Positions 1 to 7,894 of a stretch of 7,894 nt of DNA are shown piece after piece (the first letter of the stretch is position 1; the number at the start of each line of letters is the position of its first letter). The notes under the pieces are model-generated. The model saw only the letters and a program-made list of their open reading frames with translations. It had not been told where the DNA came from and did no database searches. Source of the stretch: a virus; IMG/VR virus record IMGVR_UViG_3300011013_000867, positions 1 through 7,894 of that record. The stretch is one strand, 5' to 3'. The position numbers and the translations under genes are program-made.

Positions 1-170
1 ATTAGAATTAGATGAATTAGAATTAGAACTGTTATCAGAAGTAGATGAATTAGAATTAGATGAATTAGAATTAGAACTGTTATCAGAAGTAGATGAATTA
101 GAATTAGATGAATTAGAATTAGATGAGCTTGATGAATTAGAATTAGATGAATTAGAATTAGATGTATCAT
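1..170. repeat. In-frame tandem repeat: 48-nt unit x2 (1-48, 49-96) followed by degenerate 15-nt sub-repeats; encodes SNSNSSNSNSSTSDNS-type linker
   Basis: The unit attagaattagatgaattagaattagaactgttatcagaagtagatga occurs twice without mismatch. The attagaattagatga motif continues to about base 165. Confidence 0.9.
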
Positions 171-855
171 TTGAAAAAGAAAGAGTAAATCTTCTATAAC
201 CATCGTGCGGAACAATTTTAGTTAAATTACTCTCATTACCATCAGAATAACAAAAAGAATTAGACGCATAAACAGGTACATCATCATAACATTTTTTACC
301 ATCACCAACAATATCAATACATTTATTAACTCCATAATTAGTCATAGTATCCATACAATCAAAAGCTAAATTAAGACCTTTTTGAGAGCAAAAATAATAA
401 AAAATTCCATAAAGATCGTTACAATTTTTTGGTTTATGATATTGAACGCATCTATAATCGCTAATGTTTTCATCAAATAAAAGATAAGAACCTTCAGAAC
501 AAATACACCTATTACCAGAATGATTAGGAACAAAATTAGCATCACACTCACACTTATTAGAACCAACCTTATGAGAAAATGGAGGACACTTATAAACAGG
601 ACGTTGAATTTGATACCAACAAACATAATAATGTATATGTCTATAACGATTATAATAATGATATGTACTTAAATATTTACAATGTGGATAATGAACTTGC
701 TTACAATATTTTTTAACATAATTTTTACAACCGGTATTATCAGGCAAAACCCAAGTTTTATTACCTACATTCTTAAATTCTACATAAGCAGAGATATATC
801 CAGAAGCAAAAGAAAAAACTAAAAAAAGATTAAAAAAGAGAAAAATAAATCTCAT
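1..855 (-). CDS. pIII-like adsorption/minor coat protein, N-terminal 285 codons (signal peptide, 16-Cys domain, Ser/Asn-rich linker); runs off the left edge and continues at the right edge
   Basis: ATG at 855 (cat at 853-855) is preceded by AGGA with a 6-nt spacer. Hand translation reads MRFIFLFFNLFLVFSFASGYISAYVEFKNVGNKTWVLPDNTGCKNYVKKYCKQVHYPHCKYLSTYHYYNRYRHIHYYVCWYQIQRPVYKCPPFSHKVGSNKCECDANFVPNHSGNRCICSEGSYLLFDENISDYRCVQYHKPKNCNDLYGIFYYFCSQKGLNLAFDCMDTMTNYGVNKCIDIVGDGKKCYDDVPVYASNSFCYSDGNESNLTKIVPHDGYRRFTLSFSNDTSNSNSSNSNSSSSSNSNSS... and has no stop down to base 1. It is absent from the ORF track because no stop lies inside the window. Confidence 0.75.
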   Translation of the reverse strand, partial: MRFIFLFFNLFLVFSFASGYISAYVEFKNVGNKTWVLPDNTGCKNYVKKYCKQVHYPHCKYLSTYHYYNRYRHIHYYVCWYQIQRPVYKCPPFSHKVGSNKCECDANFVPNHSGNRCICSEGSYLLFDENISDYRCVQYHKPKNCNDLYGIFYYFCSQKGLNLAFDCMDTMTNYGVNKCIDIVGDGKKCYDDVPVYASNSFCYSDGNESNLTKIVPHDGYRRFTLSFSNDTSNSNSSNSNSSSSSNSNSSNSNSSTSDNSSNSNSSNSNSSTSDNSSNSNSSNSN

Positions 856-863
856 TAAAAATC

Positions 864-992
864 CTATGAAGATTCTTTAATGAGAGACAGAATTGCAAAA
901 AAAGGAACCAAGATAACAGCAAACCAAATCATAATCGAAGCAAAATAATTAAATACAACATCATTAGTTAAATCTATAATTGTTATATCCAT
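864..992 (-). CDS. 42-aa small hydrophobic protein, candidate pVII/pIX-like minor (tip) coat protein
   Basis: Hand translation from ATG at 992 (AAGG 7 nt upstream) gives MDITIIDLTNDVVFNYFASIMIWFAVILVPFFAILSLIKESS, ending at TAG 864-866. It has one hydrophobic segment and no signal peptide. It is wedged between the 69-aa ORF stop (1005) and the pIII-like start (855). It is too short for the supplied track. Confidence 0.5.
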   Translation of the reverse strand: MDITIIDLTNDVVFNYFASIMIWFAVILVPFFAILSLIKESS

Positions 993-1004
993 AGATAAAC
1001 CTTT

Positions 1005-1214
1005 TTATTTAACAACTACTTTTATAGAAAAATATAAAATAACAAAACCAACCAAAACACCACTTAAACCCATAAGGAAATTATAATCATTATAAGCTAA
1101 ATTAAGATTATTAGCAATCTTTGTAGCATTATAATCATCATCAGAAAAAGAAAAAACAGGGAGTATTAAAAATAAGATTCTAATTAAGATGAGTTTTAAG
1201 CAGCTTAATCGCAT
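1005..1214 (-). CDS. 69-aa secreted coat-like protein (signal peptide, acidic N-terminus, hydrophobic core, basic C-terminus)
   Basis: The track ORF 1005..1223 begins at a GTG; the first ATG is at 1214 (cat at 1212-1214), with GGGGTG upstream. Sequence: MRLSCLKLILIRILFLILPVFSFS|DDDYNATKIANNLNLAYNDYNFLMGLSGVLVGFVILYFSIKVVVK. The layout resembles pVIII. Confidence 0.55.
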   Translation of the reverse strand: MRLSCLKLILIRILFLILPVFSFSDDDYNATKIANNLNLAYNDYNFLMGLSGVLVGFVILYFSIKVVVK

Positions 1215-1286
1215 TTTTAACACCCCACAAAAAAACCATAAAAGTTAAAAAAGAGCTAAAAAAAACTACAAAATTATCAACATAAA

Positions 1287-1316
1287 TTTTAAAACCCACG
1301 GGAAAAAACTCCCGTG
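1287..1316 (-). terminator. Rho-independent terminator candidate directly after the major coat gene
   Basis: A 7-bp stem (cacggga 1297-1303 paired with tcccgtg 1310-1316) encloses a 6-nt loop. On the minus strand this reads CACGGGA-GTTTTT-TCCCGTG followed by GGTTTTAAAA. The GC-rich stem stands out in AT-rich DNA. Confidence 0.5.
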
Positions 1317-1496
1317 TTATCTAATTAAGTGTAGAGCTTTTTTAATAGCCCATATACCAGCCAAGCCAGTCAATAAAGCACCAGCAACAGTAACAACATT
1401 GCTTAAATCAAATGTAGGAGCAGTCAAAGTAGCATCCGCAAAAGCCATAGAAGCACCAAGACCAACTACAGCAGCAATCTTAAAAAGCTTTTTCAT
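1317..1496 (-). CDS. 59-aa major coat protein (pVIII-like)
   Basis: Hand translation from ATG at 1496 (AAGGAG 6 nt upstream) gives MKKLFKIAAVVGLGASMAFA|DATLTAPTFDLSNVVTVAGALLTGLAGIWAIKKALHLIR, with TAA at 1317-1319. It has a signal peptide with an AxA site. The mature ~39-aa product has an acidic N-terminus, a hydrophobic middle and a basic C-terminus. A GC-stem hairpin follows immediately, as after Ff gene VIII. Not in the supplied track. Confidence 0.8.
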   Translation of the reverse strand: MKKLFKIAAVVGLGASMAFADATLTAPTFDLSNVVTVAGALLTGLAGIWAIKKALHLIR

Positions 1497-1520
1497 AGAA
1501 AACTCCTTAAAAAAAATTTT

Positions 1521-1537
1521 TTAGGGATTAACCCTAA
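1521..1537 (-). promoter_or_regulatory. Small hairpin between the ssDNA-binding gene and the coat gene (weak attenuator or mRNA element candidate)
   Basis: ttaggg (1521-1526) pairs with ccctaa (1532-1537) around a 5-nt loop. On the minus strand it is followed by AAAAATTTTTTTT and then the coat AAGGAG. Confidence 0.25.
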
Positions 1538-1615
1538 TAATATTTTATAATCTTTTTACTTAATTATTTCTTAACTTTCAATAAATCATTTTACCAGAAA
1601 AGAAAGAAATAAAAC

Positions 1616-1969
1616 TCATTTTTTCAACAAACTATCAATATATTTAACAAATTCATTAGAATCAGAAACTTTAACTTGAAACTGACTTTTTCCTCCTGTT
1701 GGCATAGGAATTTGTGTTTTGAACTCCAAAATTACATTTTTCTTTCTAATTTCATCTAATTTATCACGCAAAATTAAAGCATTACTGTATTTTTCCAAAG
1801 GAACAACAAAAATTATATCTTGAACAATCTCATTACCATTTTCATCAAGCTTAAACGCTTGTGAAGAAAATTGAACTTTTGAAGGAAAAGAAATACCTTG
1901 AAAAGTACCACTTTCCAAAGCTTTTAAACCACTAAAACCTTTAACACGAAAAATAATATCTAAACTCAT
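1616..1969 (-). CDS. 117-aa putative ssDNA-binding protein (gene V analogue, assigned by position only)
   Basis: A strong AAGGAG lies 5 nt upstream of ATG 1969. The small soluble protein sits immediately after rep and before the coat gene, which is the gene V slot in Ff-type genomes. I recognised no sequence motif. Confidence 0.5.
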   Translation of the reverse strand: MSLDIIFRVKGFSGLKALESGTFQGISFPSKVQFSSQAFKLDENGNEIVQDIIFVVPLEKYSNALILRDKLDEIRKKNVILEFKTQIPMPTGGKSQFQVKVSDSNEFVKYIDSLLKK

Positions 1970-2027
1970 ATAAACTCCTTATAATTTATTTGTAATATAA
2001 TTATAATAAAATAATATAAAATATAAC

Positions 2028-3014
2028 TTAAACAATATAATAATTATTAAAATCTTTAGAAAAAAACAATTTATTATTATGATATATCTTCAAAACATTG
2101 TTTTTAAAAACAATAGTATGATTTAAATCAGAATTATAAAGAACAAACTCACCCTTTTTAAAGTTCTTTTCTTTAACATCATAAAAAACAGTATAATCAA
2201 ACCAATCTGAATTTAAAAAAAATATTTTCTTATATATCCAAAAAGGTAAAACAGAAAAAGAAGTCGTAAATCTTCTAATCTTATATTTTAAATACCAAAC
2301 TTGCAAAGCATCTAATTTTTGATTTTTTTTTATATTTAAAAATGATTTTGTAGTATATTTTAAAATATAACCTACAGGATTTTTTAAAGCAACTTCAAAT
2401 TTTTTTTGTTTAGCAGGAAAATATTCATAAAACTTATTTTTAACTTCATCAACAAAATCATTATGTATCCAAAGAAGCATATGAATATGAGGAACTCCAT
2501 CAGATCGATGAGGCTCTGTAGCTCTAATATAAGCCCTCTTATAACCCAATTTCCTCATTTTCCTAAAAACATTTGTATAAATAAATCTCCATAACTGAAA
2601 ATTTAAAATATTATACAAATCTTTAATAGTAAAAACTTCATTATTATTTATCTTATCACGCAAAAAACCAAAACGTTCATTATTTGGAATATATCTATCG
2701 TAAAAATTTCTATTTTTTAAATTATTATACCTTTTAAAATTAGAACATAAAAAATCACGAAAAAAACCATCCAAAGTAACAGTTAAAAAAATAGGAACTA
2801 AACGAAAATTAGATGATATTAACTTAAAAGTATTAATTTTGTTTATAAGGGTATTATAATAACGCTCACTTAAATTAGCAGACATAGAAATATCTAAAAA
2901 AGTTTTTACTTCACCATTTGAATTTACAATATGTTTATTATTTAAAAAACTTCTTTGTTGCTCTAATTTTTTATTATAAAAAATTATATCAGACTCAGAA
3001 ATACCATACAACAT
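2028..3014 (-). CDS. 328-aa HUH-superfamily rolling-circle replication initiator (Rep)
   Basis: Three RCR motifs occur in canonical order: FLTVTL (residues 76-81), PHIHMLLW with HUH = H176-I-H178 (plus strand aagcatatgaatatg at 2475-2489), and GYILKYTTK with Y216 and Y220 (YxxKY). Confidence 0.9.
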   Translation of the reverse strand: MLYGISESDIIFYNKKLEQQRSFLNNKHIVNSNGEVKTFLDISMSANLSERYYNTLINKINTFKLISSNFRLVPIFLTVTLDGFFRDFLCSNFKRYNNLKNRNFYDRYIPNNERFGFLRDKINNNEVFTIKDLYNILNFQLWRFIYTNVFRKMRKLGYKRAYIRATEPHRSDGVPHIHMLLWIHNDFVDEVKNKFYEYFPAKQKKFEVALKNPVGYILKYTTKSFLNIKKNQKLDALQVWYLKYKIRRFTTSFSVLPFWIYKKIFFLNSDWFDYTVFYDVKEKNFKKGEFVLYNSDLNHTIVFKNNVLKIYHNNKLFFSKDFNNYYIV

Positions 3015-3104
3015 TTTTTATCTTTTTATAAATTTTTTATATATTTTATATTTTTTAATTTATTTTAATTTTATTAATTATTAATAATTTAAATATATTT
3101 TATC

Positions 3105-3132
3105 ATTACAACATTTTTTGTTAATTTGTCAA
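3105..3132 (-). promoter_or_regulatory. Sigma70-like promoter candidate for rep
   Basis: On the minus strand: TTGACA (3132-3127), a 16-nt spacer ending TGt, then TGTAAT (3110-3105). This is about 90 nt upstream of the rep ATG and abuts the GC hairpin. -10-like hexamers are common in AT-rich DNA, but TTGACA is rare here. Confidence 0.35.
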
Positions 3133-3133
3133 G

Positions 3134-3178
3134 GGACGCTGCGCGTCCGCTCGCAAGCTCGCTATCCGCGTAGCGTCC
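3134..3178. promoter_or_regulatory. GC-rich imperfect hairpin; candidate replication origin/nick-site or packaging structure
   Basis: ggacgctgcgcg (3134-3145) pairs with cgcgtagcgtcc (3167-3178), giving 12 bp with one G.T position and a 21-nt loop containing gctcgc twice. An alternative local hairpin is ggacgc (3134-3139) with gcgtcc (3143-3148). Region 3133-3178 is 33/46 G+C by hand count. It lies between the RHH gene and the rep promoter candidate. Confidence 0.55.
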
Positions 3179-3206
3179 TATTTCTTTCTTTATTATACAA
3201 AAAAAA

Positions 3207-3371
3207 TTAATTAAAAAGAGAAGAATTCTTAATAACATAATCTTTAATCAACATTCTAATAACTTTGCTTGCATCTAAATCTTTTGATTTGCATACACTC
3301 ATAAATATTTTTTTAGTATTTTTATCTATAAGCACAGATATTCTATCATTTTTAATATTTTTATGCTTCAT
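3207..3371 (-). CDS. 54-aa ribbon-helix-helix (CopG/Arc-like) DNA-binding protein
   Basis: Hand translation from ATG 3371 (GGAG 5 nt upstream) gives MKHKNIKNDRISVLIDKNTKKIFMSVCKSKDLDASKVIRMLIKDYVIKNSSLFN, with TAA at 3207-3209. RISVLI(strand)-KNTKKIFMSVCKSK(helix)-DLDAS-KVIRMLIKDYV(helix) aligns without gaps with CopG RLTITLSESVLENLEKMAREMGLSKSAMISVALENY (recalled from memory). Not in the supplied track. Confidence 0.6.
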   Translation of the reverse strand: MKHKNIKNDRISVLIDKNTKKIFMSVCKSKDLDASKVIRMLIKDYVIKNSSLFN

Positions 3372-3419
3372 AATAACTCCAAAAAAATTTTTACAATATT
3401 ATTATAACAAAATTAAAAT

Positions 3420-4163
3420 CTATGAATTTTTTAATTTATTATTTTCTAAAAAAGAATAAAAAACATCAATATTTTTTAGTCTTCTATTATACATCTTATT
3501 CCAAAGATACAAAGCATCTTCACGATTGCAAAAATCATCATAATAATAACAATAAATAAAACCATTTCTAATCTCAAAAACAACATCATCTTTAAATCTT
3601 TCAGGATCTGAAAACTTAAAACCATTAAAATATTTAGTAATAAAATCTTTAAATTCTTTAAGAGAGATATTTTTAAAAAACTCTCTCAAATCTTCTTTAG
3701 TAGAGAGAGTATTTATTATATTTCTTTTATTAGTATATTCAATATTTAATAGTGTCTTGTTATCCGATGTCGGATTTTCCAACTTCGGAGTTGACAACGT
3801 AGGATTATCAACATTTTTATCAATATTTTCATTTTCTTTTAATTGCTCTTCGTATTTTTTTAAAGGTATTTCATAAACTTCATATTCAACTCTTAAAAAT
3901 CTACCTTTCTCATCTCTTATAGTATTTCTAACTAAATATCCAGAATTTTCAAGCTCTTTCAAACCAGAACGTAAAGAATCACGACCATCAGTAGAACGAT
4001 TAACTAAATCATTCAAACGAACTTGCCAATTAGAAGGACGAGAAAACAAATACAACAAAATTCCTTTAGCTTTCCAAGAAAGACCGCAATCACTTATAAA
4101 ACCATTATCAACGACAGTATAATTTCTTAACTTCTTTTGCTTAAACTGTAGTAAAGAACTCAT
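3420..4163 (-). CDS. 247-aa winged-helix DNA-binding protein of the DnaD/plasmid-phage replication-initiator-like (HTH_36-type) kind; C-terminal half unassigned
   Basis: AGGAG lies 6 nt upstream of ATG 4163. The N-terminus YTVVDNGFISDCGLSWKAKGILLYLFSRPSNWQVRLNDLVNRSTDGRDSLRSGLKELENSGYLVRNTIRDEKGRFLRVEYEVYEIP matches the pattern I know from that family (LS..AKG..LYL.S.P..W....DL.......I...LKELE..GYL......D..G.F....Y.VYE.P). It is followed by a DNP...ENP...LLNIEYTNK linker typical of those proteins. Confidence 0.75.
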   Translation of the reverse strand: MSSLLQFKQKKLRNYTVVDNGFISDCGLSWKAKGILLYLFSRPSNWQVRLNDLVNRSTDGRDSLRSGLKELENSGYLVRNTIRDEKGRFLRVEYEVYEIPLKKYEEQLKENENIDKNVDNPTLSTPKLENPTSDNKTLLNIEYTNKRNIINTLSTKEDLREFFKNISLKEFKDFITKYFNGFKFSDPERFKDDVVFEIRNGFIYCYYYDDFCNREDALYLWNKMYNRRLKNIDVFYSFLENNKLKNS

Positions 4164-4193
4164 AATAAACTCCTAAATAAATAATGTAAAAAC

Positions 4194-4221
4194 ATTATAA
4201 TAAAATTATAATAAAAAGCAA
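4194..4221 (-). promoter_or_regulatory. Promoter candidate for the wHTH/RHH genes
   Basis: On the minus strand: TTGCTT (4221-4216), a 16-nt spacer, then TATAAT (4199-4194), about 30 nt upstream of ATG 4163. Specificity is low in AT-rich DNA. Confidence 0.25.
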
Positions 4222-4287
4222 ATAAAATATAAAAAAATAAATAAATTAGCTTTTTTTAACAAACTGATTGAGAGTTTAAAACAATAT

Positions 4288-4343
4288 GAGCAAAGATTTT
4301 TTTTTGCTTTTTTGACACGAAGCAAAAAAAATCTACTTTGCTC
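4288..4343. promoter_or_regulatory. Long imperfect AT-rich hairpin downstream of the secretin gene; candidate packaging signal and/or terminator
   Basis: gagcaaag (4288-4295) pairs with ctttgctc (4336-4343). The T9 run (4297-4305) pairs with the A8 run (4324-4331). gctt (4306-4309) pairs with aagc (4320-4323). This gives about 20 bp, a small bulge and a 10-nt loop ttttgacacg. On the minus strand it is followed by ATATTGTTTT. Confidence 0.45.
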
Positions 4344-4522
4344 TCAAACCTTATTAAGTATATACAAAATATTTACATTATCAACATAATAATATCATTT
4401 CAATTTGATATGACAGTTATATTATTACATTAATATTATTTGATATTAAATAATATTATTAAAAGCTTAAAAATTTTTCGAGTTTCGCACGATTCAAGCA
4501 ATTTATAAGTTTATCTAATTAT

Positions 4523-5698
4523 TCAATGATTTTTAAAAGGATTATTTTTATTTATAAATTTTAAAAGAGGATTTGAAGTTTTCAAAACATTAACATTAAG
4601 ATACAAAATATAAGTAAATTTTAAATCTGAATGAGTAGATGAATTAAACAAATTTTTAATGATAGGAATATCAGAAAGCAACGGAATATATTTTCTATTA
4701 TCTTTTGCAAAAACATCAGTGTTTAATCCAGCAATGGCAATTTTTTGCCCAACAGGAATTATAAAAGAAGTATCTAAATCTATAGCATTTTTAACATAAT
4801 TATCATTTCTACTATCATAATAACTATCTTCAAAAAACATTTTAATCAAAACTTTATCACTTATCAGAACAGGCTTAACTCTAAAAATAAGACCCACAGT
4901 TTTCTCTTCATAAGTAGTCGTATTTGTAGGAATAGTCTTATCATAAGAAGTAATAATCTGATTAGGTATTCTATAAACCTTTGAATTAGTAAACCTAACA
5001 GATTGACCAGATAGACAAATAAAGTTAGGCTTTACAATAGAATTTATATAACCCTTACTTTCTAAAAAGTCAAGATAAACAGAAATATCATCACCCGAGT
5101 TTCTATAGTCAAATCCAATCTTTTTAAAAAAATCAAAAAATAAAGATGGATTAGAATATTCATTAATAGATTTAATAAGAATATTTAAATTAATATTATT
5201 ATTTTTTATATTATTAATGTTAACGCGATAAATAGAACTTATAAATTTTAATGTCTTTGGAAAATTTATTTGTTTAATTGTTTTATAAAAACGATTAAAA
5301 TCATCAGTTTTATCATACAAAACAATAAAATTATTTTTGTTTAAATAATGAACTTCTAAATTAAATTTACTAGCAATATTATTAAGTTTTTTTATATTCA
5401 AATTATTAATTTTTATAATTTTTGATTTTTTAGGAATTTTTTTAATGTAATAAAATCCAGCATTATAAGATAGATAATAATTATTAGGTATAAGAACTTG
5501 TTTAATCATATCAATATATTGTTTCTTTGAAATATCATCATGCACAGACATGAAAACATTAATATTCATATCTTTATCGTACAAAAAATTTATATTGTAT
5601 CTCTCTGAAACAAACAAAATAAAATCTTTAAATTTTAATTGTAGAACATTAGCACTAACAAAAGAAAAAGTTAAAAACAAAAACAATAAAAATCTCAT
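4523..5698 (-). CDS. 391-aa outer-membrane secretin (pIV-like)
   Basis: It has a signal peptide MRFLLFLFLTFSFVSA and an N-domain-like LKFKDFILFVSERYNINFLYD. The secretin C-domain pattern is present: YLDFLESKGYINSIVKPNFICLSGQSVRF...KTVGLIFRVKPVLISDKVLIKMFFEDS...DTSFIIPVGQKIAIAGL...YIPLLSDIPIIKNLF. GGAGG is upstream, and the ATGA overlaps the pI stop. Confidence 0.85.
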   Translation of the reverse strand: MRFLLFLFLTFSFVSANVLQLKFKDFILFVSERYNINFLYDKDMNINVFMSVHDDISKKQYIDMIKQVLIPNNYYLSYNAGFYYIKKIPKKSKIIKINNLNIKKLNNIASKFNLEVHYLNKNNFIVLYDKTDDFNRFYKTIKQINFPKTLKFISSIYRVNINNIKNNNINLNILIKSINEYSNPSLFFDFFKKIGFDYRNSGDDISVYLDFLESKGYINSIVKPNFICLSGQSVRFTNSKVYRIPNQIITSYDKTIPTNTTTYEEKTVGLIFRVKPVLISDKVLIKMFFEDSYYDSRNDNYVKNAIDLDTSFIIPVGQKIAIAGLNTDVFAKDNRKYIPLLSDIPIIKNLFNSSTHSDLKFTYILYLNVNVLKTSNPLLKFINKNNPFKNH

Positions 5699-6798
5699 CT
5701 AAAAAGACCTCCAGAACCAAAAAGATAAGTATTATTATTATCAAACTTTTGAATAGTCTTAATCTTATTAGCATTAACATATTTATCCAAAATCTTAAAT
5801 TTATAATTATTTAAAGAATAGCAATAAAAAAAATATAAACCATATGAACGCTTAAATATAAGCTTTTGACCTTTAATAATATATTTAACAAATGCAACAT
5901 TCAAATAAACATCTTTGTAATAACAGCTATCCTTACTACACTTAAAAAATACAATATTGTCAGAATTAGAAGTATTATCAACAAAATTATTCTTACCATT
6001 TTCAGATTGATATTGTTTAATATTAGATTGACTTAAAACTTTTTCATTGTCAACAGGAACATTTTTTTTATCTTCAGAAGAAGACATAAAATATCGAATA
6101 ATAAAAAAAGCAAGAAAAAATAAAAGCAATAAAACCAAAGCAATAAGACCAAATTTTTGTATAAAACTCTTATTTTGAACAGAAGAGCCAGAATTATATA
6201 ACAAAAAAACGTCAGGAATAACAGAAACAGATATAACAGAAACTTTTTGAGTATTATACATTTTATCGCCAGAGTACAAATTGTATCTCATTTTGTTTTT
6301 TGAAATCCTCAAAGAAGATGGAAAAGCTTTATAAAAATGCTCCGAGAAAGCTTTATATTTTGAATCAACGAGAGATAAATTTTGAGTTACTAAAATTATC
6401 TCTTGATACAAATGCCTTGCATATGAAAGCCACCAAATTAAAACATCGTCTTTCTTGCTCAAATAATTATGACATTCATCAAAAACAATCAAACATCTTG
6501 ATAATTTATATTCAGAAGCTTTTTCATTTAATTCAACATCAGTAACATTATCTTTATAAAGAGCATATAAATCTGATAAATAATTGTAAAAATTCTTAAA
6601 ATTTATATTTTCAACATTATCAAATTTTGATAAATCCAAACCATTGATATTAGTATAGCAAAAATCAATATTTTTTACTTCAAAATCTTTCTTTATCTTT
6701 TTTTTTAACTCTTCATCTTTAACGAAGTTTTTAACAATAAATAGTAGTGAAAAATAAGTTTTACCACTTCCAATTACACCTGTAACAAAGCGTATCAT
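5695..6798 (-). CDS. 367-aa pI/Zot-family P-loop assembly ATPase
   Basis: An N-terminal Walker A (MIRFVTGVIGSGKTY), a Walker B (CLIVFDECH) and a central TM segment (FGLIALVLLLLFFLAFFIIRYF) precede a Cys-containing C-terminal domain. The gene sits directly upstream of the secretin with 4-nt overlaps on both sides. Confidence 0.9.
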   Translation of the reverse strand: MIRFVTGVIGSGKTYFSLLFIVKNFVKDEELKKKIKKDFEVKNIDFCYTNINGLDLSKFDNVENINFKNFYNYLSDLYALYKDNVTDVELNEKASEYKLSRCLIVFDECHNYLSKKDDVLIWWLSYARHLYQEIILVTQNLSLVDSKYKAFSEHFYKAFPSSLRISKNKMRYNLYSGDKMYNTQKVSVISVSVIPDVFLLYNSGSSVQNKSFIQKFGLIALVLLLLFFLAFFIIRYFMSSSEDKKNVPVDNEKVLSQSNIKQYQSENGKNNFVDNTSNSDNIVFFKCSKDSCYYKDVYLNVAFVKYIIKGQKLIFKRSYGLYFFYCYSLNNYKFKILDKYVNANKIKTIQKFDNNNTYLFGSGGLFR

Positions 6799-7226
6799 GC
6801 AACACCACGAAGAGCATCTTTAATTAAATTTTTTAATATTCTTTTTGCTTCAACTGACATTTTATAAAAAATAAAAGTGAAAACAAATAAAATTGAAGAG
6901 AAAAAAATAGGTTTTGATTGATTAATACCATCTAAAAAACCAGAGCAAGAAAGCATATGAGAAATCATTTTAAAAATACAACTTGATTGAGAACTAACAG
7001 AGCCAGAGCTACCAGAAGCTAAAATTTGTATATTATGTAATACATTTGTTATTAAATTGTATAAATCAGAAAGAGTAACAAGTATAAAAACATAAAAAGT
7101 TATAACAGCAGAATAATAAGATACCAAAAAAGTATATTCTATCGCAATTACAACTGTTTTAGTAGAAAATTTCTTAACAAAGAAAGATATTAAATCACCC
7201 AAGAAAGCAACAATTGCACCCCACAT
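6795..7226 (-). CDS. 143-aa multi-pass membrane protein, pVI-like minor coat protein (by position)
   Basis: GGAG lies inside the last codons of the pIII-like gene, with ATG at 7226. Several hydrophobic segments are present. The gene lies between the pIII-like and pI genes, as Ff gene VI does. I recognised no sequence motif. Confidence 0.55.
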   Translation of the reverse strand: MWGAIVAFLGDLISFFVKKFSTKTVVIAIEYTFLVSYYSAVITFYVFILVTLSDLYNLITNVLHNIQILASGSSGSVSSQSSCIFKMISHMLSCSGFLDGINQSKPIFFSSILFVFTFIFYKMSVEAKRILKNLIKDALRGVA

Positions 7227-7228
7227 AA

Positions 7229-7894
7229 TTAACTCCTAAATCTTAAAATTGTTTTAACAACTATAAGAATAGACAAAATACTTATTAAAATATTAATTAT
7301 TAATGCAATAATCGGAGCCATAGGAGAAATGTATGGACAAAAATCAATTGAGATCTCTTTACCGTTAAAAGGATTTCTAAATTTTGCACATACAGGAAGA
7401 TTATCATTTTTATGAATATCTAATTTAAAACCTCTTCTAAAAACATCTTTCGTTTTAGAAATCTCTCGAAATAAAGAATCAAAATCACTTTTAACATTAT
7501 CTTTAAATTTGTTAAAACCAGAAAACAAACTATCTTCTTTACCAGTCAAAGTATTTAAGCCACTTGTATCAATATTATAATTAACATCTTTACCAGCACC
7601 TTGACCAGCGTTACAATGTTTAAACTCATTATTACCAGAACTACCACCAGAGCTACCAGAACTACCACCAGAGCTACCAGAACTACCACCAGAGCTACCA
7701 GAACTACCACCAGAGCTACCAGAGCTACCACCAGAGCTACCAGAACTACCACCAGAGCTACCAGAACTACCACCAGAGCTAGTCAAAGGATCTGAAATAT
7801 TAGAATTAGATGAATTAGAATTAGAACTGTTATCAGAAGTAGATGAATTAGAATTAGATGAATTAGAATTAGAACTGTTATCAGAAGTAGATGA
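7229..7894 (-). CDS. pIII-like adsorption/minor coat protein, C-terminal part (Ser/Asn linker, (SSGGSSG)x7 linker, C-terminal domain with membrane anchor); 7799-7894 duplicates 1-96
   Basis: The reading frame stays open from the right edge to TAA at 7229-7231. The tracker's M at 7786 is a TTG inside ...SNSNISDPLTSSGG... The frame matches the 855-start ORF when 7799=1: codon first bases fall at 7786, 7789...7801=3, and 855 is also 0 mod 3. The C-terminus MAPIIALIINILISILSILIVVKTILRFRS is a hydrophobic anchor plus basic tail, as in Ff g3p. The joined product is 474 aa. Confidence 0.75.
   Translation of the reverse strand, partial: SSTSDNSSNSNSSNSNSSTSDNSSNSNSSNSNISDPLTSSGGSSGSSGGSSGSSGGSSGSSGGSSGSSGGSSGSSGGSSGSSGGSSGNNEFKHCNAGQGAGKDVNYNIDTSGLNTLTGKEDSLFSGFNKFKDNVKSDFDSLFREISKTKDVFRRGFKLDIHKNDNLPVCAKFRNPFNGKEISIDFCPYISPMAPIIALIINILISILSILIVVKTILRFRS
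7634..7780. repeat. Seven tandem 21-nt in-frame repeats encoding (SSGGSSG)x7
   Basis: The unit accagaactaccaccagagct starts at 7634, 7655, 7676, 7697, 7718, 7739 and 7760. Six copies are identical. The fifth has one substitution (a->g at 7724), which is synonymous on the coding strand (AGT->AGC). Confidence 0.95.
7799..7894. repeat. Terminal redundancy: exact copy of bases 1-96 (the same two 48-nt units)
   Basis: Direct comparison of the window ends. The identity starts at 'at' (7799-7800) after ...tctgaaat. Confidence 0.95.

Follow-up and report, generated by a model that had tools for sequence, protein, structure and literature searches.

Gene content, circular closure and relatives of an uncultivated inovirus genome from a probable Campylobacterota host

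Filamentous prophages carrying zot are present in Campylobacter concisus and other Campylobacter and include the CON_phi2/CON_phi3 type (Liu et al. 2016, PMC5025632). Inoviruses as a whole include thousands of catalogued cryptic members, with Campylobacterota among the host clades (Roux et al. 2019, PMC6813254). The element described here is contained in IMG/VR virus record IMGVR_UViG_3300011013_000867, positions 1 to 7,894. This entire stretch of 7,894 nucleotides is referred to as the window, and positions are numbered from its first nucleotide. The window is very likely one complete genome copy of a circular, uncultivated inovirus, together with a 96-nucleotide assembly overlap. Its host would belong to the Campylobacterota, probably to the Arcobacteraceae, and be diderm and very AT-rich.

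The zot prophages of Campylobacter used for comparison (loci L006, L007, L020, L030, and others; L and P numbers are labels of the present analysis) stand for the CON_phi2/CON_phi3 type and are not equated with CON_phi2 or CON_phi3. They share with the window a homologous pI/Zot (37-40% identity), Rep (35-37%), secretin (approximately 25%), and small hydrophobic proteins, as well as the same GC-rich hairpin and CCTTGTCAAATTAATAAAAAA just upstream of rep. These prophages are chromosomal, have a GC content of 34-39%, and have rep directly after pIV, without the genes for a ribbon-helix-helix (RHH) protein, RHH54, and a winged-helix protein, wHTH247. In contrast, the window is a circle at 24% GC with this two-gene module placed between pIV and the candidate origin and rep.

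The nearest pI lineage is composed of Arcobacteraceae inovirus prophages (L015, L029, L033, L034, L038, and L057) and the metagenomic relatives P0003 to P0005, which match the window in GC content. L034 carries a wHTH247 homologue, like the window. These relatives differ in that they are integrated or fragmentary, share at most 53% protein identity with the window, and contain no detectable counterpart of its pIII, ORF117, or RHH54.

The Ff phages (M13, fd, and f1) resemble the window in having, on one strand, the replication gene, the position of the single-stranded DNA (ssDNA)-binding protein, the coats, pIII, pVI, pI, pIV, and a hairpin-bearing intergenic region. The pIV of the window matches the PHROG family of M13 pIV, Rep matches the G2P domain family, and pIII has Gly/Ser-rich linkers. 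Unlike in Ff, the two small hydrophobic genes come after the major coat gene, RHH and winged-helix genes are present in addition, and no gene V-like fold was detected.

The element has the features of the inovirus type (Tubulavirales): pI/Zot, a pattern of small coat proteins, a Rep of the HUH type, a one-strand circle of 7.65-7.8 kb, and a pIV secretin. Its pI and Rep orthologues and its hairpin-plus-motif are those of the clade of Campylobacterota zot prophages and inoviruses, while the chromosomal integration of that clade was not found. Plectrovirus features (genetic code 4 and the lack of a secretin) are absent. The element is an undeposited filamentous phage that adds a further member to a well-known type of virus; it does not represent a new kind, and current understanding is not overturned. 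It provides a closed reference genome for an Arcobacter-like Campylobacterota inovirus lineage that has no isolate or deposited genome and is without a match in INPHARED, PLSDB, and IMG/VR. It is also an apparently non-integrating member of a clade otherwise known only from prophages, which include the zot prophages studied for C. concisus virulence. The hairpin-plus-motif offers a concrete origin hypothesis for the whole clade, and the plasmid-type insertion may be a route by which the element persists as an episome.

Genome layout, closure and relatives

All 11 supported genes are on the minus strand. Coding sequence makes up 88.6% of the genome, the GC content is 24.1%, and the coding strand is T-rich (42% T). 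The minus strand would be the virion strand. Most genes have ribosome-binding sites of the AGGAG type, and at pVI/pI and pI/pIV the stop codon of one gene overlaps the start codon of the next. The order on this strand is Rep, ORF117, coat, small hydrophobic proteins, pIII, pVI, pI, and pIV. A preliminary description, made without database searches, had claimed an Ff-like gene order on one strand, and the map of open reading frames (ORFs) bears this out. Its labels for Rep, pI, and pIV are supported by profiles, those for the coat, pVI, and pIII agree with sequence features, and that for the ssDNA-binding protein agrees with position only. Its gene list overlooked RHH54 and wHTH247, both located between pIV and Rep.

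Two export genes identify the element as inovirus-like by profile. The pI/Zot morphogenesis ATPase (5695-6798) is 367 amino acids in length and matches PF05707 at 2.3e-18, with 66.8 bits where the cut-off is 20.3, as well as phrog_197 at 1.4e-19. It contains a Walker A motif (GSGKT), a Walker B pair (DE, residues 107-108), and a single transmembrane segment (residues 210-241). Residues G12, K13, D107, and E108 are invariant in its relatives. The pIV-type outer-membrane secretin (4523-5698) is 391 amino acids in length, has a signal peptide, and matches PF00263 at 3.2e-16 and phrog_1012 (protein IV of M13) at 4.7e-20, as well as the GspD and PilQ families. The search with pI/Zot and secretin profiles that the preliminary description had proposed as a check gave matches above the Pfam gathering cut-offs for both.

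Nucleotides 1-96 are identical to nucleotides 7799-7894, as confirmed by direct comparison. The left and right terminal overlaps, to which no strand is assigned, are two exact 48-nucleotide units inside the pIII gene, and the right copy is redundant after circularisation. A prefix of the window equals its suffix at lengths of 1, 48, and 96 and at no others; the lengths of 48 and 96 both occur because the overlap is two exact tandem units. The pIII gene contains two arrays, one of 48-nucleotide units spanning 1-164 (3.3 copies) and one of 21-nucleotide units spanning 7633-7781. Joining the ends at 7798/1 gives a minus strand with a single unbroken ORF of 474 amino acids from the ATG at 855 to the stop at 7229. 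The two half-ORFs that had been described as being in phase across 7799/1 are thus joined into one protein with a signal peptide and a C-terminal anchor.

A second contig, L001 (ENA ERZ27251151, k141_253690), was retrieved by exact-protein look-up and is 7,786 base pairs (bp) long with a 141-nucleotide terminal overlap. An end overlap of 141 nucleotides is the usual mark of a circular MEGAHIT contig. L001 is permuted differently from the window: it ends inside the secretin gene and runs unbroken across the 7798/1 junction. The two are 100% identical over 6,676 and 952 nucleotides. L001 lacks 153 nucleotides, all of them in the pIII arrays (one 48-nucleotide unit and five 21-nucleotide units). 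Its circle is 7,645 bp, and its pIII is 423 amino acids long as opposed to 474 in the window. The difference in array copy number between L001 (4231-5502) and the window reflects either assembler collapse at k=141 or real variation of linker length in the population. A Logan contig of 1,620 bp from SRR6056610 is colinear with window positions 1478-3097 at 100% identity. Host flanks, which the preliminary description had named as a check, are present on none of the retrieved contigs that carry the window's proteins. Because two differently permuted contigs close on each other, a false circle driven by the repeat is excluded, and the molecule is circular or tandem.

The earlier claim of a complete, circularly permuted genome is upheld by this second contig, which has another break point and spans the junction. 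The claimed length of 7,798 bp stood less well. Closure was supported, but the overlap lies within a tandem repeat, so the repeat number and the exact length are not fixed. An overlap of 48 instead of 96 nucleotides would give a genome of 7,846 bp, and L001 gives 7,645 bp. The genome length is 7.65-7.85 kb, as set by the true copy numbers of the two pIII-linker arrays. The element had also been described as a whole replicative-form or virion genome and not a fragment of a chromosome; that the genome is whole is supported, while a free form and a tandem prophage are not separable from contigs.

Matches to pI were found by tblastn in 108 loci, nearly all from Campylobacterota. The relatives in GTDB (80 loci) are likewise nearly all from Campylobacterota and share at best 44% identity. 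The homologues in GTDB and a collection of 5.8 billion proteins are from Sulfurimonas, C. concisus and its relatives, Aliarcobacter/Arcobacteraceae, Sulfuricurvum, Sulfurospirillum, and Nautiliaceae. In neighbour-joining trees of pI, 99 of 100 bootstraps place the window with P0003 to P0005 (53% identity to P0003); prophages of Arcobacteraceae are its closest named relatives, both in the first tree and in 71 of 100 bootstraps. The GC content of the Arcobacteraceae loci is 24.7-26%, against 24.1% in the window. From these pI relatives, the tree, and the composition, the host belongs to the Campylobacterota and probably to the Arcobacteraceae. This supports, and narrows, the earlier description of an uncharacterised inovirus of a very AT-rich host.

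TGA serves as the stop codon in four of the 11 genes, which indicates the standard code, and the presence of a secretin indicates a diderm host. A Mollicutes host (with a plectrovirus) or a Gracilibacteria host was ruled out by the TGA stops together with the encoded secretin. Five contigs of 1.7-5.5 kb (L008, L012, L050, L075, and L080) with a clade-typical pI occur in bins labelled Gracilibacteria, Micavibrio, Aquificales, or Izemoplasmatales. They are probably mis-binned inovirus contigs and no evidence for those hosts.

The locus L002 (4780-14225 of a 220-kb contig, JGI 3300049406) is an integrated prophage with a tyrosine integrase and a pI 47% identical to that of the window. It lies between murG-side genes and lolA/secA, and its rep follows pI. 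The secretin match by tblastn at this locus is only 119 amino acids long and 24% identical. This layout indicates that members of the clade vary in whether they integrate and in their secretin.

The 50,697 deposited phage genomes of INPHARED gave no match by distant blastn of the whole genome or by tblastn with pI, and the plasmids of PLSDB gave none by tblastn with pI. The best pI relative in IMG/VR is 40% identical. Among the matches listed in a metagenome scan with pI, L108, a 1-kb fragment, is 84% identical.

Replication protein, candidate origin and the two-gene module

Rep328 (2028-3014) is a rolling-circle HUH endonuclease with an above-threshold match to PF23343 (REP_ORF2-G2P, 7.2e-9). 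Its motif I (FLTVTL), HUH motif (PHIH, residues 175-178), and two-tyrosine motif (YILKY, residues 216-220) are all invariant in 11 relatives, and Rep homologues were found by tblastn in 89 loci, again nearly all from Campylobacterota. Based on these motifs, Rep328 would nick the replicative form at the origin and start rolling-circle synthesis.

The candidate (+)-strand origin (3114-3178, minus strand) lies upstream of rep and is composed of GC-rich hairpins and a conserved motif. It falls in an island of 70% GC (3114-3191) within the 24%-GC genome, and the island has no exact match in IMG/VR. On the coding strand, its hairpins include GGACGC-GCA-GCGTCC (3148-3134), which has a G-N-A triloop. 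Directly 3' of this hairpin is CTTGACAAATTAACAAAA (3133-3116), which occurs once in the window. The motif CTTGWCAAATTAAYAAAA abuts a GC-rich hairpin upstream of rep across inoviruses and prophages of Campylobacterota (L006-L106 and L114-L183). This hairpin-plus-CTTGWCAAATTAAYAAAA feature of the clade is defined in the present analysis and is not taken from the literature, where no description of it was found among the sources searched; the sample and run accessions likewise gave no result there. Across 30 related loci, conservation of the motif is 90% or higher despite protein identities of 25-45%, and in 28 of the 30 it is located 40-70 nucleotides upstream of rep. The hairpin is always 5' of the motif; its stem sequence varies by lineage, while the motif is nearly invariant.

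An exact-motif scan of IMG/VR links the element specifically to this Rep family. All 17 contigs with a Rep homologue have the hairpin, with ∆G values of -10.9 or lower, and the motif lies 27-167 nucleotides upstream of rep. Of the 58 motif contigs without a Rep homologue, which are chance matches, only two have a GC-rich upstream segment. A perfect stem on a G-N-A triloop is present in 21 of 37 distinct upstream segments (shuffles: mean 0.6, maximum 3), many of which are close variants, with at least eight unrelated stems among them.

Two other readings of the hairpin and motif were considered and rejected. A promoter was not retained as the main explanation of the motif: the C. concisus loci have a ribosome-binding site within approximately 25 nucleotides and no -10 box, and promoter-like sites are no more common in the window than in shuffled sequence (64 and 60, respectively). 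The GC hairpin was not retained as a terminator, as an A-run and not a T-run follows it on the coding strand. Because the promoter and terminator readings fit poorly, the hairpin and motif are proposed as the recognition and nick site of Rep. From its conservation, the origin would consist of the G-N-A-triloop hairpin and CTTGACAAATTAAC, 110 nucleotides upstream of rep.

The annotated viral-strand origin of phiX174, CAACTTG^ATATTAATAAC (NC_001422; L226 4270-4350), has CTTG and TTAATAA in common with the clade motif (window 3116-3148). A G-N-A-triloop hairpin, CCCC-GAA-GGGG, is located 20 nucleotides downstream of the phiX174 origin. The gpA protein of phiX174 has a YxxKY arrangement of two tyrosines, as does Rep328. 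The two systems differ in that phiX174 belongs to another virus family, CTTG and TTAATAA are three nucleotides apart there and five here, and its hairpin is 3' of the origin while that of the window is 5'. The likeness is short and is possibly a mechanistic parallel or possibly chance in AT-rich DNA, and it is treated as a lead and not as a test.

Between pIV and Rep are the two genes that have no Ff counterpart, together with the main intergenic region. RHH54 (3207-3371) is a ribbon-helix-helix DNA-binding protein (PF19839, RHH_9, 7e-12). Its sub-threshold matches are to plasmid copy-control families (ORF56, RepC of IncL/M, and a RepA regulator). Judging from these matches, it is probably a regulator like CopG or Arc, one that would repress rep or set the copy number. 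CopG of pMV158 is an RHH copy-control protein, and copG is upstream of repB, as RHH54 is upstream of rep.

The initiator-like winged-helix protein wHTH247 (3420-4163) is 247 amino acids in length. Its N-terminal domain is of the DnaD or phage/plasmid replication-initiator type, and it matches phrog_4707 ('replication initiation protein') at 1.2e-25. Conservation is poor in the C-terminal half. In the AlphaFold2 (AF2) model, the predicted local distance difference test (pLDDT) score of the N-terminal domain is above 90, and this domain has weak fold matches to DnaD-N, primosomal DnaB-N, domain 1 of RctB, and MarR-type regulators. The family has matches in 350 PLSDB plasmid records (Leptospira, Bacillus, Legionella, and others). 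One Legionella homologue (L225 3483-4544) is annotated as a 'replication protein' and is preceded by an RHH (TraY-domain) gene. The closest full-length relative (L110 9391-10161, 42% identity) is encoded on a plasmid-like contig, directly 3' of parA-parB. In L034, L036, L041, and L053, homologues are found beside inovirus modules.

The winged-helix initiators of plasmids and phages (DnaD-like N-terminal domain, HTH_36) are homologous to wHTH247 in its N-terminal domain, and in Legionella plasmids the gene of the homologous 'replication protein' likewise has an RHH (TraY-domain) gene as its partner. The window differs from these systems in having no DnaD/DnaB_2 C-terminal domain, no clear iterons, and the order wHTH then RHH.

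The main intergenic region (4164-4522, minus strand) follows pIV and is 359 nucleotides in length. It contains inverted repeats and has an ssDNA folding z-score of -3.9. A long imperfect hairpin is present at 4288-4343, and AT-rich palindromes are present at 4379-4461, including a 28-nucleotide near-perfect palindrome at 4431-4458. Eight of the 30 matches to AATAATATTA-like sites in the window cluster within 75 nucleotides, at 4388-4461. By analogy, the region is a candidate for the packaging signal, a complementary-strand origin, or operator sites. The palindromes at 4379-4461 could serve RHH54 or wHTH247 as operators, or form hairpins in the ssDNA at an origin for the complementary strand. 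An Rfam scan gave only a chance-level match to BTnc231 (E=0.48).

State of the element

An artefact of assembly would have produced the 96-nucleotide end identity if both ends of the contig had stopped in the same low-complexity tandem repeat. Such a false circle is in keeping with an overlap of exactly two 48-nucleotide units and with the existence of a 48-nucleotide overlap. Against it, the join rebuilds a complete, in-phase pIII-like ORF, and L001 is continuous at this point and closed elsewhere by a 141-nucleotide overlap in the secretin gene, so that this explanation is effectively refuted and has a negligible chance of being correct. It is improbable, though less remote, that the element is not a stably episomal phage but a tandemly arrayed, integrated prophage or a circle that a lysogen has released. 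The majority of its relatives are chromosomal prophages, some with a tyrosine integrase (L002), and filamentous prophages such as CTXphi are often found in tandem. De Bruijn assemblers fold tandem copies into circles. The element itself, however, has no integrase, tRNA, or dif/difH-like site. No integrase domain was found in the window proteins with Pfam or PHROG, no tRNA or tRNA attachment site was found in the window, and the best window matches to difH (sequence from PMC2731167) and to E. coli-type dif have at least five mismatches. Furthermore, the retrieved contigs with these proteins have no host flanks, and the 185,579 species genomes of GTDB hold no similar copy (best identity 44%). 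The presence of wHTH247 and the lack of an integrase, tRNA attachment site, or dif-like site suggest persistence as an episome and not as a prophage. Taken this way, the gene content suggests a phage that lives as an episome, is chronically secreted, and possibly carries a module for plasmid-like maintenance.

A further explanation reverses the roles of the modules: a phage-plasmid hybrid would replicate and persist through wHTH247 acting on 4164-4522, with the filamentous export module as its transfer device. The plasmid distribution of the wHTH247 family, its copy annotated as a 'replication protein', the parA-parB neighbours of its closest full-length relative, and the resemblance of RHH54 to plasmid copy-control proteins are all consistent with this. 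So are the recurrence of wHTH247 homologues beside inovirus modules at four other Campylobacterota loci and the palindromes and repeats that adjoin its gene. The hybrid is nevertheless rather unlikely. A complete rolling-circle module (Rep and a conserved origin-like element) would suffice, no clear iterons are present, and the AT-rich palindromes are only weakly above chance. In addition, the C-terminal half of wHTH247 is poorly modelled and lacks a DnaD or helicase-loader domain, and its fold matches fit a repressor equally well. A combined arrangement is slightly less doubtful but still unlikely. The element may hold two replication systems, the rolling-circle Rep with its origin and a plasmid-derived set of wHTH247, RHH54, and the intergenic region, making it a filamentous 'phage-plasmid', with the G-N-A hairpin and CTTG^WCAAATTAAYAAAA as the previously undescribed Rep nick site clade-wide, C. 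concisus zot prophages included. If this is true, the plasmid-derived module would let the replicative form persist and be inherited as a plasmid is, without integration.

The preferred reading remains that of a complete, circular inovirus genome, and several points weigh against it or parts of it. Contigs of the same form would also be assembled from a prophage in tandem array or from a circle that had left a lysogen. The overlap sits within a tandem repeat, and 96 is atypical for a k-mer overlap. Both full-length contigs may derive from the same sample and are then perhaps not biologically independent. The host call, probable as it is, is based on pI relatives of at most 44% identity and on composition, and the candidate origin is assigned by conservation and analogy only. 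The putative labels of ORF117, pVI, and pIII are without homology support. Finally, wHTH247 could simply be a transcriptional regulator, as the best matches of its predicted fold include MarR-type repressors.

Virion proteins, ORF117 and minor features

The major-coat-like protein of the pVIII type, coat59 (1317-1496), is 59 amino acids in length. It has a signal peptide ending in AFA/DA (cleavage at the slash), an acidic N-terminus, a transmembrane helix at residues 33-52, and a basic C-terminus. Its gene has a strong AAGGAG ribosome-binding site. The protein is 34-53% identical to its equivalents in 13 related loci. It has no match among the Pfam coat families, and the label refers to these features and not to homology with Ff pVIII. 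A second coat-like protein of 69 amino acids (1005-1214) has a signal peptide, an acidic stretch, a transmembrane segment, and a basic end, and is kept in 32 related loci. A hydrophobic protein of 42 amino acids (864-992) is a candidate minor coat protein of the pVII/pIX type and is kept in 33 related loci.

The pIII-like adsorption protein is assigned by position and is split by the ends of the window. The N-terminal part (1-855) begins at the ATG at 855 and contains a signal peptide (MRFIFLFFNLFLVFSFASG), a Cys-rich domain, and a Ser/Asn-rich linker encoded by the 48-nucleotide array at 1-164. The C-terminal part (7229-7798) contains a linker of seven GGSSGSS repeats encoded by the 21-nucleotide array, a C-terminal domain, and a hydrophobic membrane anchor before the stop at 7229. 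No relatives of this pIII were found among the related loci compared, other than in L001. The pVI-like protein (6795-7226) is a polytopic membrane protein of 143 amino acids located between pIII and pI. It has hydrophobic segments and homologues in 10 related loci, with no Pfam or PHROG profile match.

ORF117 (1616-1969) occupies the place that the gene V ssDNA-binding protein has in Ff. No match was found in sequence searches of Pfam, PHROG, NCBIfam, or PDB, and a word-seeded homologue search returned only ORF117 itself. An exhaustive HMMER search of 1.84 billion representatives gave two remote, unannotated relatives. The positional equivalents in L036, L041, and L049 show faint similarity (11-23%). 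A single-sequence AF2 model has a pLDDT of 61, and Foldseek gave no meaningful fold match. The earlier claim of an ssDNA-binding protein is therefore retained for the gene V position and is not backed by profile, homologue, or fold.

These proteins suggest how the virion would be formed. ORF117 possibly coats the displaced strand, judging from its position only. The strand would then be exported through the inner-membrane ATPase pI/Zot and the phage-encoded secretin pIV, both genes of which are identified by profile. During export, it would gain the 59-amino-acid major coat, the two small hydrophobic proteins, and a pIII/pVI cap, as sequence features and position indicate.

A perfect small palindrome, TTAGGGTTAATCCCTAA, is present at 1521-1537, between the genes for ORF117 and the coat. 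Next to it, in coding-strand direction, come an A run and then T (AAAAATTTTTTTT), and a terminator scan flags the palindrome on both strands. In Ff phages, transcription is attenuated or terminated ahead of the coat gene. The palindrome could likewise attenuate or terminate transcription ahead of a highly expressed coat gene.

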